The position numbers and the translations under genes are program-made. The notes beneath the pieces are model-generated. The model did no database searches and was not told where the DNA came from. It saw only the letters and a program-made list of their open reading frames with translations. 64,000 nucleotides of DNA from Escherichia phage vb_EcoM_bov9_1, in sequence record MT884006.2, one strand, 5' to 3'. Shown piece by piece: positions 2,459-35,542 of this stretch (positions are counted from its first letter, which is position 1; every line of letters begins with the position of its first letter).

Positions 2459-4278
2459 TACTGGCTCATCCATTCTTTACGAAGGTCAGCATTATCCCCC
2501 ATGAGCATTTCAAAAAGCTCTTTCCAGTTCTCAGGAAGTTTAACAACATCATATACTGGGTTTTGAATCATCTCACGATATTCAGATTTTTCCAAAGAGC
2601 CAAGTCCCTTAATATAACGGATGCTATGTTTAGGTAGAGCATCTTTGGCACTCTCATATTCAGCGACTGTATAAAACCATTCTTGTTTTTTACCGACCTG
2701 AGCGATGATTACAGGAGTTTTGACAAAACGAATTCGTCCTTGCTCAAACAATTCTGGCCAATTACTAAAAAATCCGAGCAGAGAAGGATAAATGCTTCCT
2801 AAACCATCATGGTCAGCATCGGTCATAATAGCAATATTATGATAATTCAAGTTTTCAGCTTTTTCACCAAGAACTAATCCAGTGATTGCGCAAATATCAA
2901 ATAGTTCTTTGTTTTTAAGCATATCAGCATATGACATACCCCAACTGTTGAGAACTTTACCACGCAATGGATAACCACCATGAAGTTCTTTATCACGAAC
3001 ATCAATAAGATATCCGATAGCAGAATCACCCTCGGTTAAGAACAATGTAGTATCAGCATCTTTACCACAAAGATTCGCTTTAATATGTTTATGAACCTTA
3101 GCTTTAGAAGCCTTTTTAGCTGCTTTAGTTTCTGCTGCTTTTTCTGCTGCCAATTTACGAGCCAAGGCAGCTTCAATAATCGGCATTAGAATTGCTTCAT
3201 TATTTAGAATAGCACGTGAAATCTTTTTAGCATCAAGCTGAATATGACTACGGATTTCACCAAATGGAGAAGTCAAACGCTCTTTAGTTTGAGAATCAAA
3301 TCGCATGTTTTTCATATCACGAACAAACATAACGATAGTCAAACATTCTTTAACGCGTGCTTTAGTTACATCAATTTTGAACTTACGTTTGATTTGTGGA
3401 ATAAGGTCTTCACAAATATCATCCATAACACAGTCAATGTGATGGCCACCATTCTTAGTATGAATGTTATTGACGTATGTTAATTGACGAAAACCATCCG
3501 GTGAACGACCAACCGCAATAGAACAATTTTCTTGTTCTTGAACGATAGCATGCTCATCATATTGGCGTGCATATTTCTTAAAATTGCCCTGAACCTTTTT
3601 ACCATTAAAGGTAAATTGAATATCAGGATAAACTACTGCAAGTGTCTGGAGACGATCTAGTGTAATGTCAAGATAAACTTGGGACAGCTCATTAGTTTCA
3701 AATGACATAAAATCAGGAATGAAAGTAACACGAGTTCCTTTCCATTTTCCAGGAATATCTTCCCATGATTTATTTTCCATGCCGTTTGAACAACGAACTA
3801 CAATATTATTTTGACCATCACCAGTTTCACCGACAAACATCACAGAAAAAATGTTTGTCAAACTAGAACCAACACCATTCATACCGCCAGTGACGCGTTC
3901 TTTATCATCACCAAAGTTACCACCTGCTTTTGGAATAGTCCATGCAGCAACAGGACCAGGAATTTCTTCACCGGTAGGTGTTTTAACCATTGCCTGCGGA
4001 ATACCACGACCGTTATCTTCAACTGTTACTTGATTGTTTTTAATAGTAACATTAATTTTATTTGCGAATTTAAACTTAGTACGAATACCTTCATCTACTG
4101 AGTTATCGATAATTTCATCAATAAGCTTAACAAGACCAGGTACATACTGAACACTTTCCCATTTACCAAACAGAAAGCGCTCATGCATTTCATTAGCTGA
4201 AGAGCCAATGTACATGCCGCTACGCTTTTTGATGTGTTCAATATCACTCAGAATTTTAATTTCATTCTTAATCATCAC
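2458..4278 (-). CDS. 39: DNA topoisomerase II large (ATPase) subunit, unsplit gp39 (contains the region that is separate gene 60 in T4)
   Basis: 606-aa ORF; GyrB/ParE-like GHKL ATPase motifs (IIDNSVDE, EDNGRGIP, GGMNGVGSS) followed by TOPRIM-like region (LFLTEGDSA); contiguous reading frame. Confidence 0.9.
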   Translation of the reverse strand: MMIKNEIKILSDIEHIKKRSGMYIGSSANEMHERFLFGKWESVQYVPGLVKLIDEIIDNSVDEGIRTKFKFANKINVTIKNNQVTVEDNGRGIPQAMVKTPTGEEIPGPVAAWTIPKAGGNFGDDKERVTGGMNGVGSSLTNIFSVMFVGETGDGQNNIVVRCSNGMENKSWEDIPGKWKGTRVTFIPDFMSFETNELSQVYLDITLDRLQTLAVVYPDIQFTFNGKKVQGNFKKYARQYDEHAIVQEQENCSIAVGRSPDGFRQLTYVNNIHTKNGGHHIDCVMDDICEDLIPQIKRKFKIDVTKARVKECLTIVMFVRDMKNMRFDSQTKERLTSPFGEIRSHIQLDAKKISRAILNNEAILMPIIEAALARKLAAEKAAETKAAKKASKAKVHKHIKANLCGKDADTTLFLTEGDSAIGYLIDVRDKELHGGYPLRGKVLNSWGMSYADMLKNKELFDICAITGLVLGEKAENLNYHNIAIMTDADHDGLGSIYPSLLGFFSNWPELFEQGRIRFVKTPVIIAQVGKKQEWFYTVAEYESAKDALPKHSIRYIKGLGSLEKSEYREMIQNPVYDVVKLPENWKELFEMLMGDNADLRKEWMSQ

Positions 4279-6178: not shown

Positions 6179-6670
6179 TTATGCATAGCGAGCTTTGCTG
6201 TAGTGTTTAATCCAACTTTCAGGAATGACTTTGTATGTTCCTAAAAATACCGCGTTGTATAACTTAACGCCATCTTCTACCCATTGATCGGTAATGTATG
6301 CACACATAGCGCGAGTACGGTTAACAACACCTTCCTCACCTTCAGTAAATTCAAACTCATAAGGAGCAACGAACTTGATAGCTTGACCGAGTTTCCACTT
6401 AAAGTCTACACCTACATGCGAAGTATCAATCGTTTCAATTCCTTTAGCAGGAACAGCTTTCAAAAACGCAGATTCAAGAAATTTCGCACGAACATAGCCA
6501 AACTGAGGTTTAGACTTTCCATCTTTAGGAATGATACGCACTTTTACTTCAGAATCTTCATCTTTAGCACCGTGTTTAAGCTGAATGCTTACAACTTCGA
6601 CCAATTTTCCTGCTGCTTTAGAACGGGATTTATCAGATACACGAGCAATTTCACCAATATTAATAATCAT
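6179..6670 (-). CDS. motB: MotB-like protein (tandem paralogue 1)
   Basis: 163-aa ORF; size and synteny match T4 motB; shares the segment ITDQWVEDGVKLYNAVFLGTYKVIPESW with the neighbouring 180-aa ORF. Confidence 0.45.
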   Translation of the reverse strand: MIINIGEIARVSDKSRSKAAGKLVEVVSIQLKHGAKDEDSEVKVRIIPKDGKSKPQFGYVRAKFLESAFLKAVPAKGIETIDTSHVGVDFKWKLGQAIKFVAPYEFEFTEGEEGVVNRTRAMCAYITDQWVEDGVKLYNAVFLGTYKVIPESWIKHYSKARYA

Positions 6671-6746
6671 AGTTATCTCTCACTTGTTAAAAAGATTTTA
6701 TACTCCACAGGACCATTATACTCTGGTCCCAAGAGTTTGTAAACTA

Positions 6747-7289
6747 TTAATTCAAAATAGCTACCACTGCACTACGAGGTACTACGCTAAAATCACCTGC
6801 ATGAACAACGTTCAGAAGTTCAACACCATCTTCAATCCACTGGTCTGTTACCCAACCACAGACCGAAATAAATGGGGTCTTAATAGCTACTGCACGAGTC
6901 AAAAGGTCAGTAGGATCAACTTCTTTGAAGAGGATAAGCTCTGCTTCAAAGACTATAGTTTTAATTACTTCATCATTATCTAAGCGTTGTGCTCGAATCA
7001 CATAAGCTTTATTCTTATCATGCCAATTACTTTTTGAAAAACTTTTAACCACAAACTCGCCTTCACCAAAAACATTGGTCAATGCTTTATAACCCAAACT
7101 TAGTTCAGTAGTTTTAATTTCAGTTTCAACCAGTTTGTAGATTTTACCAATTTCGATGGTCCGAGCAGTCATAAAGGTTTCCTTAATTTCTAATGGTTTA
7201 ACAAGAGTGCCGTACATGCTTGCTATATCCATGTCAAGCAGCTTATATACAGGATTCGGTGCGTATTCAGGATTATAATTAAATTTCAT
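6747..7289 (-). CDS. MotB-like paralogue (tandem paralogue 2)
   Basis: 180-aa ORF; C-terminal segment VTDQWIEDGVELLNVVHAGDFSVVPRSA similar to the 163-aa neighbour. Confidence 0.5.
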   Translation of the reverse strand: MKFNYNPEYAPNPVYKLLDMDIASMYGTLVKPLEIKETFMTARTIEIGKIYKLVETEIKTTELSLGYKALTNVFGEGEFVVKSFSKSNWHDKNKAYVIRAQRLDNDEVIKTIVFEAELILFKEVDPTDLLTRAVAIKTPFISVCGWVTDQWIEDGVELLNVVHAGDFSVVPRSAVVAILN

Positions 7290-30026: not shown

Positions 30027-30713
30027 TTAAAAATCGTGGGTAGAATCAGCTTCAAGAGCTACTACATAATTCGCGTGTTCACCTTCAAATTTAGCAGCAC
30101 CTTGTTTACCTTTTGCCCAGAGCAGAAGTTTATAATTTCCTGGTTGCATTTTCATATTTGCCATATTGATAATGAAATTAAATGTATTTTCACCATCATA
30201 ATCACCAAGAGTCAAAGAATATTTAACACGGGTCAAAGCAGAATCTTCTACTTTATTAAAACCGTTAATTACGATTTTACCTTCTTTTACCGTGATAGCA
30301 ATTGTATCAATTTGCAGACCACGAGATACACGCAACAGTTGTTGAAGGTCTTCAGCTTTAATTTCAGTAACAACAGATGCTATCGGGAATGGAATTGGTT
30401 TATTAGGAGCAACTACTGTACTCGGATCGGCTGCTGGCCAAAAAATTGTTGAACGAGCATCAGCAATTTTAATATTTCCATCTTCTGACTGGGAAATTTC
30501 TGCATCATCATTAACTAGAGACAGAATACCAAGAAAACCGTTCAAATCGTAAATTGCTACATCAAAATCAATAACGTCAGAAATATTTGCTTCCGCATAA
30601 GTTGTACCATTAACTGCGCGAGTCATAATAAATTGACCGGATTTAAGCATAATACCGGAGTTAATAGTAGCGAAATTTTTCAAAATATTCAGTGTGTCTT
30701 TAGATAATTTCAT
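30027..30713 (-). CDS. 45: sliding clamp gp45
   Basis: 228-aa ORF; size and position match T4 gp45. Confidence 0.9.
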   Translation of the reverse strand: MKLSKDTLNILKNFATINSGIMLKSGQFIMTRAVNGTTYAEANISDVIDFDVAIYDLNGFLGILSLVNDDAEISQSEDGNIKIADARSTIFWPAADPSTVVAPNKPIPFPIASVVTEIKAEDLQQLLRVSRGLQIDTIAITVKEGKIVINGFNKVEDSALTRVKYSLTLGDYDGENTFNFIINMANMKMQPGNYKLLLWAKGKQGAAKFEGEHANYVVALEADSTHDF

Positions 30714-31597
30714 TTCAATTTCCTATTTACGTAATAGTTAGACCAGGACCGTACAGCACCCTGATAAGATTCGTCGTTAAACCCATTAGCTACTGCAATT
30801 TTACGAAATTTATTATAACTCGGTTTTCCGTAAGCATGCCATAAAGATTTTAATTCATCTTCATGTTCAATCCAAGTTCCTCTAGCTTTAGATTTTCTAA
30901 ATTTTGATTTGAATTCCGGTAAATTATTTCTAACAGTTGCTTGAATTGAAGCTCTCTGTCTTCTTTCAGCATTATTCCATAATTCTTTTTGAGATTTAGA
31001 AATTTTTGATCTTACACTTTCTGAACTCATTATATCACTAAACTTTTTAGCATAACTACAATCAAGATATTTCAATTTCATCTTATTTGAAAGTTTAAGC
31101 TTTTTCTCATCGGTCCAGTGATTCTTCATTGAATTAGATATTTTGTATTTTACGTCAGAACTATGTTTGTAACCTTTACGAATACCAACATAATCGGGCG
31201 TAATTTCAGATTGCGAAAGCTTTACAATTTTTCCAGTTAAAACATTTTTATATGTTCCATATCCTTTAGCGCCAATTAAAGTATTTTCATCTGCGTATGC
31301 TTTATTAAAATATTTTATATTACTTTTTGCTTTAACTTTTAATTGAAAAAATCTTTCCAATTTTCTTGGATCTAATATAGTTTCAGCTAAAATTTTGACG
31401 GTGTATTTAGTGGTTTTAATAAGCTCAAAATATTCATCACTATAACTCGATGACACGCTTCCAGTATAAATCTTTCCAGCTGAATCAATTATATTTGTTC
31501 CATCGAAAATTGCGTTAATTTTTGAACCTATATAATAACACGGAAAAATATTTTTAGCTTCCCGCTCTGGAAAGCTAATAAGATATACTAAATTCAT
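30710..31597 (-). CDS. Seg-like GIY-YIG homing endonuclease (free-standing)
   Basis: 295-aa ORF; N-terminus [22 protein letters not shown] resembles the GIY...YIG motif pair of Seg/I-TevI enzymes; Lys-rich C-terminal half with repeated short basic modules; inserted between 45 and rpbA. Confidence 0.55.
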
Positions 31598-31983
31598 TTA
31601 TTAAACTCGGCCGCAATTGTTTCCGCAACAATTTGAGCAGCAACAATTAGACGTTCATCTGCGTTACCGCAATAATCATCTTCAAGGCGTTCACCACATG
31701 AAGTCATAATAAATTTAGCACCGGCGTTTAGGGATTCTGCAGTATGTTTGCGCATTAGTTCAATCCATTTATTACTTACTTCACGATCGATAGCTTCATA
31801 ATACGCATGACGAGCAGGTGCAGATTTAATTTTGTTCTGAATAACTTCCATTGCGTTATCAGAAAGAGACAAAACCCATGCTCGACGAATTTTATTTTGG
31901 TTTTGTGGATTTGATTCAGAACGCACGTGTTTTGGCTGAATATCTTTTACATCAACAGTATAATTCACAGTAATTTTAGTCAT
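31594..31983 (-). CDS. rpbA: RNA polymerase binding protein RpbA
   Basis: 129-aa ORF; size and position match T4 rpbA. Confidence 0.75.
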
Positions 31984-32236: not shown

Positions 32237-33919
32237 TTAAACCATTACAGTAAATCGACCAACTTTCTTCATTTGAAGATGTTGACCGTATGCTTGTGGG
32301 TCATGGTCTCTATGCGAAATAACAAAAACATTAGTATTTTTTAAACTATCTAAAATAGTTGAAATAGCTTTTACACCTTCAACGTCGGTCGCTGAATCAA
32401 AAACTTCATCAAGAATTAGTGTGTTTATTTTAACACCTGAAACTTTTTCAGCAATATCACGCCAAGTAAATAAAAGAGCAATATCAATTCGTGCTTTTTC
32501 ACCTTGACTGAATGAAGCATAACTAAAATCTTCACGACCACGGGATTTAATTGTCTCATTAAATTCTTCATCTAATGTAAACACATAATCTGCTTCCATT
32601 ATTTTAAGATAATGGTTAATCTGCTTATTAAATAATGGAATGTACTTTTTAATAATAGCACCTTTAATACCAGAATCTTTGAGCATATCAGTCAAAATTC
32701 CTCGGTGGTATTTTTCCATTACTAAATTAGTTTTTGTCTTAACAATTTTATCAAGTTCTTCTTGAAGCAGTGCTATTTCATCAGCATGGTCAATAAACTC
32801 AGAAGATGCTTTTTCTATAGCCGCTTTAACTTTTTTAGCTTTATCTACCGTCGTGATTAGAGATTGCTTTTTATTGCGAATATCATTTGCCAACGACTGT
32901 TGGGTTTTAATATTATCTCGGTATTCATCAACAAGAACTTTTAAATTATCACGATGTGTTGAAAGCTGTTCAAACGAATGCGTACATTCAGAAACTTTAT
33001 CTTTAATTTTAGAAACAACTTTATCACCGGAACTTAATTGTGACAAGCAGGTTGGACATAATCCACCTTCGTGATACATATTAATGACTTTATTATACGA
33101 GTCAATTTTTGATTTAATTAAAACTGCTTCTTGACCGATTTTATTAAATGCATCAGTCGGGTCTTCATCTAAAACAATATTAACTAATCTTTCATTAGCT
33201 TCTTCTATTTCCGATTTTAGCGTTCTAGCTTCTTTTGCCAAATCATCATACATATTTTGCAGACGAGTAAGGTTGTCACCCGTTAATTTTTTCTGGCGTT
33301 CAACGTTATCATTATATATTTTAATTTGTTGGATAATACTATCTTTTTTAACATCAAGCACTTGGTTTTGTGAATTTAATTCACGTATTAGTGCTTTATT
33401 AAGCTTATCCATTTCAGCTAATGTTCCTACCTCGAGCAGGTCTTCCACGAGCTTTCTTCGCGCAGGGGTCGACAAACCCATGAAAGGGGTATACCCTGCT
33501 GTACCAAGGACAACAATCTGCTTGAAACTGGCATATGACATTCCGATAAGCTGTTCAAATTCTGCTTGGAAATCTTTACTGCTGGCAGATTCATTAAGAC
33601 GTGTACCGTTAACGGTGATTTCGAAAACGTTTGGTTTTTGTCCTCTTTTGATATAGTACTTTTTCTCATCATATTCCATCCACAGTTCAACTAAAAGTTC
33701 TTTCTTATTTGTGCTGTTTATTAATTGACCTTTCTTTACATCACGAAATGGTTTGCCAAAAAGCCCAAATGTGATGGCTTCTAACATAGTAGACTTACCA
33801 CCGCCATTTCGGCCAGTAATAAGAGTTTTTTGAACCTTATCTAGTTGAATGTCAATAGGATTTCCACCTACTGACATTATATTTTGATACCTAACTCGGT
33901 TTAGTTTAAAATTCTTCAC
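32237..33919 (-). CDS. 46: recombination nuclease subunit gp46 (SbcC/Rad50-like ATPase)
   Basis: 560-aa ORF; Walker A GRNGGGKST, central coiled coil with CPTC zinc hook, C-terminal signature and D-loop LILDEVFD. Confidence 0.9.
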   Translation of the reverse strand: MKNFKLNRVRYQNIMSVGGNPIDIQLDKVQKTLITGRNGGGKSTMLEAITFGLFGKPFRDVKKGQLINSTNKKELLVELWMEYDEKKYYIKRGQKPNVFEITVNGTRLNESASSKDFQAEFEQLIGMSYASFKQIVVLGTAGYTPFMGLSTPARRKLVEDLLEVGTLAEMDKLNKALIRELNSQNQVLDVKKDSIIQQIKIYNDNVERQKKLTGDNLTRLQNMYDDLAKEARTLKSEIEEANERLVNIVLDEDPTDAFNKIGQEAVLIKSKIDSYNKVINMYHEGGLCPTCLSQLSSGDKVVSKIKDKVSECTHSFEQLSTHRDNLKVLVDEYRDNIKTQQSLANDIRNKKQSLITTVDKAKKVKAAIEKASSEFIDHADEIALLQEELDKIVKTKTNLVMEKYHRGILTDMLKDSGIKGAIIKKYIPLFNKQINHYLKIMEADYVFTLDEEFNETIKSRGREDFSYASFSQGEKARIDIALLFTWRDIAEKVSGVKINTLILDEVFDSATDVEGVKAISTILDSLKNTNVFVISHRDHDPQAYGQHLQMKKVGRFTVMV

Positions 33920-35382: not shown

Positions 35383-35519
35383 ATATCAAGAACCGTCATT
35401 GAAATGCAAAATAAAATTATTGAAATAAATCCATCTGGAGTGCTAAAGAACCCAATCCAACATGCTCTAGTGAATAGATAAAATGCAAGAAAAAGTATCA
35501 CATATCCAAGAAATATCAT
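35379..35519 (-). CDS. small hydrophobic protein (47.1 position)
   Basis: 46-aa ORF not in the track; stop overlaps the gene 47 start (ATGA); GGAG SD upstream; coordinates hand-derived. Confidence 0.3.
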   Translation of the reverse strand: MIFLGYVILFLAFYLFTRACWIGFFSTPDGFISIILFCISMTVLDI

Positions 35520-35542
35520 TATATCAAACTCCGTATAAAGCT

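Follow-up and report, generated by a model that had tools for sequence, protein, structure and literature searches.

A 64,000-nucleotide (nt) stretch of DNA from Escherichia phage vb_EcoM_bov9_1 (record MT884006.2), here called the window, carries on its minus strand a 295-amino-acid (aa) open reading frame (ORF) between rpbA and gene 45, the sliding clamp gene. The window was 100% identical, at the same coordinates, to Escherichia phage vb_EcoM_bov10K1 (MT884007.2, Tequatrovirus). Its minus-strand gene order is 46, 45.2, rpbA, the 295-aa ORF, 45, 44 and 62, and the ORF therefore falls inside the T4 order 43-regA-62-44-45-rpbA-45.2-46. The GC content of the ORF was 29.3%, compared to 35-37% in the flanking genes. 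An earlier reading of the letters alone (the original prediction) had placed a homing endonuclease gene at 30710-31597, with its stop overlapping the gene 45 start, between two genes that are adjacent in T4; each of these points was confirmed, rpbA and gene 45 being parted in T4 by a 55-nt spacer only. The features of the junction are as follows.

31594 to 31983, minus strand: rpbA, the upstream flank, with last codons …ADFNR-stop (…AEFNK-stop in the allele without the endonuclease)
31594 to 31597, minus strand: ATGA, in which the rpbA stop (TGA) overlaps the endonuclease start (ATG)
30710 to 31597, minus strand: putative homing endonuclease ORF, 295 aa plus stop, matching PHROG 655
30710 to 30713, minus strand: ATGA, in which the endonuclease stop (TGA) overlaps the gene 45 start (ATG)
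30027 to 30713, minus strand: gene 45 (sliding clamp), the downstream flank

Since T4 and most relatives have only the 55-nt spacer in the rpbA-45 gap, the ORF represents either an insertion or a replacement when compared with the common allele. On the rpbA side, alleles with the gene and alleles without it cease to be homologous at the last one or two rpbA codons. The ORF product was divided into four parts.

31283 to 31597, minus strand: residues 1-105, SegG-type GIY-YIG nuclease domain, with invariant Y5, Y22, G24, K26, Y44, S47, E81 and N98
31178 to 31282, minus strand: residues 106-140, linker, predicted to form a small beta-hairpin, with conserved Y113, Y116, TG121-122, VKL125-127 and YV136-137
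30908 to 31177, minus strand: residues 141-230, helical Lys/Ser-rich repeat region, NUMOD3-like but below threshold
30713 to 30907, minus strand: residues 231-295, C-terminal three-helix domain, presumed to bind DNA, SegA-like

In a blastp comparison, the nuclease domain was identical to T4 SegG at 41 of 103 positions (40%, residues 1-103; pairwise E value, 1e-16), and a tblastn search of 2.3 Gb of phage DNA returned the SegG match at an E value of 3e-9. PHROG 655, labelled "homing endonuclease," matched residues 1-294 (E value, 3e-32), and PHROG 7504 also matched the ORF protein (E value, 5e-18). An exhaustive HMMER search of 1.84 billion representative proteins identified 267 related clusters at an E value of ≤1e-3, from which 145 N-termini were taken for the conservation figures and for an hhalign profile. 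The eight residues listed above as invariant were at least 97% conserved in these 145 relatives, with Y5, Y22, G24 and N98 at 100% and E81 at 99%, and all of them are present in the ORF protein. When the profile of the 145 N-termini was aligned with a profile of I-TevI plus SegA-F, a match was obtained with a probability of 88.9% (E value, 2.4e-6), in which Y22 was paired with I-TevI Y17, E81 with the catalytic E75, and N98 with N90. The match was seen only with this combined profile; against I-TevI alone the probability was 1.4%, which is below significance.

The features that define the GIY-YIG superfamily and its SegG-type members were also largely present. The GIY/YIG motif pair, whose halves are expected 10-17 residues apart, was found at that spacing as V4-Y5 and Y22-I23-G24; the catalytic Glu and downstream Asn corresponded to E81 and N98; the alpha/beta fold of the catalytic domain was recovered; and similarity of the SegG type was evident both from the T4 SegG nuclease domain and from the PHROG profile. 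Together, these results support the assignment of the ORF N-terminus as a GIY-YIG nuclease domain, specifically one of the SegG type. They also bear out the proposal that the gene encodes a free-standing Seg-like GIY-YIG homing endonuclease, through the SegG identity, the PHROG 655 match and the hhalign result with its aligned Glu and Asn.

The remainder of the protein showed a graded pattern of conservation. The linker residues were conserved across the wider family. Residues 141-230, predicted to be helical, were the least conserved part between genera (39-49% identity). The original prediction had described the C-terminal half as Lys/Ser-rich with repeated short basic modules; the composition held, but the modules were detected only as a sub-threshold match to NUMOD3 (PF07460) at residues 142-158 (9.2 bits and an E value of 1.6, versus a gathering score of 20.4 bits). 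The best NUMOD3 match among close orthologues had an E value of 0.011, and NUMOD3 was significant at the equivalent position in five relatives (P0008, P0010, P0012, P0041 and P0083); the NUMOD3-type repeats of the ORF protein look degenerate. Matches to Pfam DUF families in the ORF and five relatives were likewise sub-threshold and were set aside. The C-terminal three-helix domain was the most conserved part between genera (72-77% identity), and within it residues 247-278 matched the T4 SegA C-terminus with 38% identity across 32 residues (pairwise E value, 1e-5). This module is presumed to bind DNA. Neither element of the I-TevI-type DNA-binding region (the PF22635 zinc finger and the PF20987 helix-turn-helix) was matched, in Pfam or by fold.

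The distribution of the gene was that of a free-standing homing endonuclease, in that it lies between conserved genes, is oriented with them, and is polymorphic for presence or absence among close relatives. The endonuclease gene was found in 24 of the 641 phage records that matched the region (Tequatrovirus), and the others have the spacer allele. In Mosigvirus, the gene occupied the same junction in 10 records, including AV118, and was absent from RB69; in Gaprivervirus, it was found at the junction in 3 records, including VR26 and TH15, and VR20, VR25, VR7 and SP18 lacked it. Thirteen genomes with the gene and 12 without it made up the junction sample. The flanks of the alleles with and without the gene were approximately 98% identical. 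The ORF was 95.9-99% identical to its copies in Tequatrovirus and 54-60% identical to those in Mosigvirus and Gaprivervirus, for which amino acid identities of 55-63% were also obtained. A presence/absence comparison of this interval had been proposed, on the understanding that an ORF found in every related genome would speak against an insertion; insertion-free alleles were instead in the majority.

The gene has been deposited under various labels, including "putative homing endonuclease" (bas45_0164 of PaulHMueller), "homing endonuclease" (SHBML-50-1, RefSeq) and "putative DNA endonuclease" (VR26_053), and in Lv5cm its annotation is based on similarity to T4 SegG. In many records it is labelled hypothetical or has no annotation at all (for example, in GiZh, 3215-4094). 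The VR26 annotation covers only the last 210 codons (from 2756); the full 295-aa ORF extends from 2501 to 3388 and starts at a GTG that overlaps the rpbA stop. A paper on this specific gene or insertion site was not found in the literature. The kind of element is an ordinary one that is already labelled in databases, at an insertion site that has had no characterised element so far.

The endonuclease protein is under purifying selection. The ratio of nonsynonymous to synonymous substitution rates (dN/dS) was 0.06-0.11 among the Tequatrovirus copies and 0.18-0.24 between genera. Six of eight sampled Tequatrovirus copies were intact. The copies of ESh24 and EC121 contained single-base (+1) insertions in homopolymer runs (T6 and C2), and the G2285 copy (922-1811) is annotated as two overlapping ORFs. 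The interrupted copies may represent early decay or homopolymer sequencing errors, one of the frameshifted records being marked UNVERIFIED.

In all three genera, gene 45 opens with a cluster of substitutions linked to the presence of the endonuclease. The segment and the differences between gene 45 alleles with and without the endonuclease gene were as follows.

30684 to 30713, minus strand: first 30 nt of gene 45, the endonuclease-linked cluster, a candidate target site or co-conversion stub
Tequatrovirus: 3 differences in the first 30 nt and 8 in the remaining 657 (Fisher p = 0.01)
Mosigvirus: 13 differences in the first 30 nt and 12 in the remaining 657 (Fisher p = 4e-13)
Gaprivervirus: 8 differences in the first 30 nt and 8 in the remaining 666 (Fisher p = 5e-8)

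Fixed differences in Tequatrovirus were scored in 8 genomes with the gene versus 8 without it for gene 45, and in 9 versus 8 for the alignment of the flanks. The fixed differences in the Tequatrovirus segment, all synonymous, lie at 30707 and 30705 (CTG to TTA) and at 30696 (GAT to GAC). The changes in Mosigvirus and Gaprivervirus include a TCT-to-AGY switch of serine codons and K5R. Alleles without the gene have ATGAAAYTBTCTAAAGAYAC in common across all three genera, and pairs of alleles of the same type differed by 0 or 1 change in this segment. No other gene-linked fixed difference was found within approximately 3 kb on either side, and no gene-linked haplotype was found further out in genes 62, 44, 45 and 46. 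Apparent fixed differences at 30872-31319 in the MAFFT alignment were artefacts of the 55-nt spacer being aligned across the insertion, and the junctions were compared directly instead. Alleles with and without the gene thus differ at a nearby sequence that could be a cleavage or recognition site, and the cluster is a probable mark of either the target site or a co-conversion stub. Part of it may be a stub derived from a divergent donor, the AV118 start resembling the Tequatrovirus type. Whether taken as target or as stub, the cluster is interpreted here as a footprint of homing; an adjustment of the translation-initiation region of gene 45 is the weaker alternative.

The initiation region of T4 gene 45 is a target of the RegA translational repressor. 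At positions 30690-30730 of the window, carriers of the endonuclease differ upstream of the AUG and at codons 3 and 6 (…AGGAAATTGAAATGAAATTATCT… versus …AGGAAATTACATGAAACTGTCT…). Since this region is altered, RegA control of clamp synthesis might be different in the endonuclease-carrying alleles.

The insertion also affects the region from which gene 45 is expressed. The start of the T4 middle promoter P45 is tabulated at 32626 (PMC2988021, Table 1), which lies within the 55-nt T4 spacer (32591-32645) that the insertion replaces. A candidate replacement was located inside the endonuclease ORF.

30812 to 30838, minus strand: candidate embedded MotA-dependent middle promoter for gene 45, CATGCTTAC-N12-TATAAT

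The consensus of T4 middle promoters is (a/t)(a/t)(a/t)TGCTTtA, 12±1 bp, TAtaaT (PMC2988021). The candidate lies approximately 100 nt before the end of the ORF, and its predicted start is near 30805, approximately 90 nt upstream of the gene 45 ATG. It was among three perfect matches to TGCTT-N14-TATAAT in the window, compared to 0.16 expected; with at most one mismatch, 18 matches were found versus 4.2 expected, an enrichment of about four-fold. Several of these middle-promoter matches precede genes for which T4 middle promoters are known, such as that at 35518-35542 before gene 47. The equivalent site in AV118 and VR26 reads (A/T)TGCTTTA-N12-TATATT and has a better MotA box. The site lies within the most conserved coding segment, where its conservation is confounded with constraint on the protein. 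Embedded promoters that serve a downstream essential gene have been documented for segG, segA and segE (PMC2988022), and we infer that the MotA-box/-10 pair may act as the replacement middle promoter of gene 45. Within the T4 spacer itself, the strongest match to the consensus, TTGCTTTA-N12-TAAAAT, would start approximately 13 nt downstream of the tabulated 32626; as the two disagree, only the tabulated start, which falls in the replaced spacer, is relied on here. The ribosome-binding sequence of gene 45, AGGAAA, is likewise contained in the 3' end of the endonuclease ORF.

For the endonuclease ORF, neither an evident promoter of its own nor a strong Shine-Dalgarno sequence was present upstream, and the protein is probably translated by coupling to rpbA. 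A generic sigma-70 and terminator scan gave results at the level of chance. The core of the T4 late promoter, TATAAATA, was not found near the locus and occurred twice in the 64-kb window, compared to 10.9±3.5 expected from shuffled sequences; this scarcity, together with the enrichment of middle promoters, fits a prereplicative gene region. A hairpin near the start of the ORF was considered as a terminator- or translational-block-like regulatory element.

31554 to 31578, minus strand: 10-bp perfect hairpin TTAGCTTTCC-AGAGC-GGGAAGCTAA followed by T-rich AAATATTTTT, 20 nt into the endonuclease ORF

The hairpin occurs only in the Tequatrovirus version and is absent from AV118 (Mosigvirus) and VR26 (Gaprivervirus). 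It was dropped as a regulatory element, being not conserved and lying in a region with a folding z-score of -0.97.

On the basis of the domain homologies, the catalytic motif, purifying selection, presence and absence in three genera, the anatomy of the junctions and the linked cluster, we consider the ORF likely to be a free-standing member of the T4 Seg class of homing endonuclease genes, in which a SegG-type nuclease domain is joined through a linker and degenerate NUMOD3-like repeats to a SegA-like DNA-binding module. Because neither a promoter nor a strong ribosome-binding site of its own is obvious, the gene would be read from rpbA-containing transcripts via translational coupling. In a mixed infection, the protein would bind an allele lacking the gene, in or beside the region made up of the rpbA-45 spacer and the opening ~10 codons of gene 45, and would make a double-strand break there; repair from the carrier genome would then transfer the gene, together with adjoining parts of rpbA and gene 45, to the recipient. 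Carriers would be protected at their own site, since in them the gene has displaced the spacer half of the target and the gene 45 half has been recoded. Because the insertion removed the spacer that holds P45 in T4, the MotA-box/-10 pair in the 3' end of the ORF would now serve gene 45, and loss of the element would be penalised. A more far-reaching model is put forward tentatively, at somewhat less than even chances, in which one Seg lineage, combining a SegG-type nuclease with a SegA-type module, has resided at the rpbA/45 junction of three Tevenvirinae genera, targets the first ~10 codons of gene 45 plus the spacer, so drives clamp and rpbA alleles, and has taken over P45. That inheritance of clamp alleles would be biased is inferred by analogy with the behaviour of SegF and SegG (PMC2988022, PMC2330249).

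Several observations weigh against this account, at the level of the nuclease assignment as well as at that of its target. A conserved Arg after the YIG motif (I-TevI R27) is a defining residue of the GIY-YIG superfamily. In the hhalign result, however, R27 was paired with D32, and the family has no invariant Arg; an invariant K26 comes after YIGS. The alignment in this region is unreliable because the length of the loop varies in T4 Seg proteins, SegA-E also differing there from I-TevI (MAFFT), and SegG shares the feature and yet is active (PMC2988022). For neither the ORF protein nor five relatives did Pfam report a PF01541 match at an E value of ≤10, and NCBIfam gave none for the ORF protein; an HMM (hidden Markov model) profile of six orthologues found nothing among PDB sequences at an E value of ≤10; Foldseek returned no match; and the fold search of the C-terminal part was non-specific; and the NUMOD3 score was sub-threshold. 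A PF01541 search had been proposed as a check on the original prediction, and it came out negative, but in the same Pfam scan I-TevI, SegB and SegE matched PF01541, whereas T4 SegG, SegF and six further family members did not. Both T4 SegG and SegF are experimentally active Seg endonucleases (PMC2988022, Table 1), and therefore the silence of PF01541 is uninformative for the SegG clade. That the ORF is an unrelated phage accessory protein with a coincidental "VY…YIGS" motif would agree with these database negatives, but, given the SegG identity and the family-wide conservation of the catalytic residues, it is regarded as very improbable. Finally, no cleavage or homing assay of the endonuclease or its orthologues was found in the literature, and carriers make up only ~4% of the Tequatrovirus records, a level to be expected of an element that is slow or costly, or from sampling, but not of one that sweeps efficiently.

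The low carriage, the lack of an alignable Arg, and the interrupted copies of ESh24, EC121 and G2285 could also be explained if the ORF were a former homing endonuclease that no longer homes and is kept for the promoter, ribosome-binding site and coupling that it provides to gene 45, perhaps as a DNA-binding regulator in the way that I-TevI represses its own promoter. The loss of the P45 spacer and the position of a promoter-like site and the gene 45 ribosome-binding sequence inside the ORF fit this explanation as well. Retention of the promoter would, however, constrain only ~130 nt at the 3' end, whereas the low dN/dS applies to the whole protein, and all of the family-invariant nuclease residues are intact, including the equivalents of the catalytic Glu and Asn. 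T4 SegG, with the same motif set and likewise no alignable Arg, is an active endonuclease (PMC2988022), and both frameshifts are single-base changes in homopolymers that may be sequencing errors. We therefore regard a non-homing relic as improbable, although less so than a coincidental motif.

A stronger challenge concerns not the activity of the enzyme but its target. Characterised free-standing Seg enzymes often, indeed usually, cut hundreds of base pairs from their own genes (PMC2988022), and a target at the junction is therefore not the default expectation. The enzyme could be active in homing with its true cleavage site further off, as for SegF and SegG, the gene 45 cluster then being a co-conversion stub or an adjustment of translation initiation. 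The Tequatrovirus cluster consists of three synonymous changes only; the gene 45 start of AV118 (…TVNIL…) is like the Tequatrovirus type (…TLNIL…), suggesting imported donor sequence; and the first codons affect translation initiation in a gene whose upstream context did change. On the other hand, since no other linked fixed difference was seen in the flanks (9 genomes with and 8 without the gene), a distant site would have to be identical in both allele types and be left uncut in carriers only by other means. The same ~25-nt segment has been recoded in three genera, including the TCT-to-AGY switch, while non-carriers keep one shared sequence; the presumed DNA-binding C-terminus is the most conserved part of the protein, which fits a target common to the three genera; and SegE provides a precedent for an intergenic target at the site of insertion (PMC2330249). 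A distant target thus appears rather doubtful, though it is the most serious of the alternatives, and the spacer plus the gene 45 start is tentatively preferred as the target.

The neighbourhood of the rpbA/45 junction collects other mobile nuclease genes. In phage N2 (locus L015, 4737-5453 and 7150-7179), the interval from 45.2 to 46 contains an HNH endonuclease on the opposite strand, and a further "homing endonuclease" follows 46. In EC121, GRNsp7 and FJ1 (loci L010, L014 and L017; ~6436-7202), an 855-nt ORF occupies the position of 46.1 and 46.2 of the window. Within gene 46, the minus-strand stretch at 32300-32700 of the window showed ~50 differences from all 16 sampled relatives, compared to 1-15 in neighbouring bins. 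This stretch is dimorphic, with 211 records at least 95% identical to the type of the window and 373 records at 80-90%. Since all eight other sampled endonuclease carriers have the other gene 46 type, this allele is unlinked to the endonuclease ~700 bp away. Other members of the nuclease family were found at other Straboviridae sites, including the segG site beside gene 59 and a site beside gene 49. In the window (1-64000), six-frame ORFs of at least 50 aa searched with purpose-built HMMs yielded no canonical SegA-F-type GIY-YIG protein and no second SegG-type ORF, and the T4 segA and segF sites appear to be empty in this phage.

When T4-like phages infect the same cell, free-standing homing endonucleases influence which alleles persist. 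If the element described here is active, it would locally bias which alleles of the sliding clamp gene, of rpbA and, probably, of the clamp-loader genes are inherited, a point relevant to the design of phage cocktails and to the reading of mosaicism in Tevenvirinae genomes. The comparative data yield a candidate target of ~25 nt with natural variants, presumed to be resistant, from three genera. Neither Pfam nor NCBIfam detects the SegG clade, which comprises about 267 clusters at 50% identity, and many of its genes are therefore deposited as "hypothetical." If the spacer and the gene 45 start are indeed the target, its proximity to the junction would be unusual among free-standing Seg enzymes and would offer a ready natural system for studies of target recoding; if P45 has been taken over, the element would be hard to lose. 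The understanding of how such elements work is unchanged by the present findings.

Among known systems, T4 SegG (gene 32.1, between 59 and 32) has the homologous nuclease domain described above, and it shares with the ORF protein the motif set MN(I/L)VY…YYIGSK…Y.(G/S)S…E…YFN as well as the lack of Pfam and NCBIfam matches. Both genes are free-standing, are oriented with their neighbours and have no promoter of their own (PMC2988022 for SegG), and each is followed directly by an essential replication gene, with the promoters of that gene moved into the endonuclease ORF, as reported for SegG (PMC2988022) and as predicted here. They differ in insertion site (59/32 versus rpbA/45) and length (211 versus 295 aa), and their C-terminal halves are unrelated. 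Moreover, SegG cuts inside gene 32, away from its own gene, whereas the comparative signal for the ORF is at the very start of gene 45, and SegG has been characterised experimentally, whereas the ORF protein is known from sequence only. T4 SegA (between uvsX and beta-gt) shares with the ORF protein the C-terminal module …(E/D)…W…GKP…(K/R)K(I/L)A…GF…SY… and a similar layout, in which a nuclease domain is followed by basic NUMOD3-type repeats and a small helical domain. Its nuclease domain, however, is of the canonical YIG…DGYMGSG type, unlike the SegG-type domain of the ORF protein, and the combination of a SegG-type nuclease with a SegA-type module looks like domain shuffling between Seg lineages. 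I-TevI, from the td intron, is the structural prototype of the GIY-YIG homing enzymes; it is intron-encoded and the ORF gene is not, and the ORF protein has no zinc finger or I-TevI DNA-binding domain by Pfam, no alignable R27, and an identity to I-TevI too low for HMMER/Pfam detection. Together, these comparisons distinguish the ORF from every T4 seg gene in its insertion site, in its combination of domains and, probably, in a target adjacent to its own junction.

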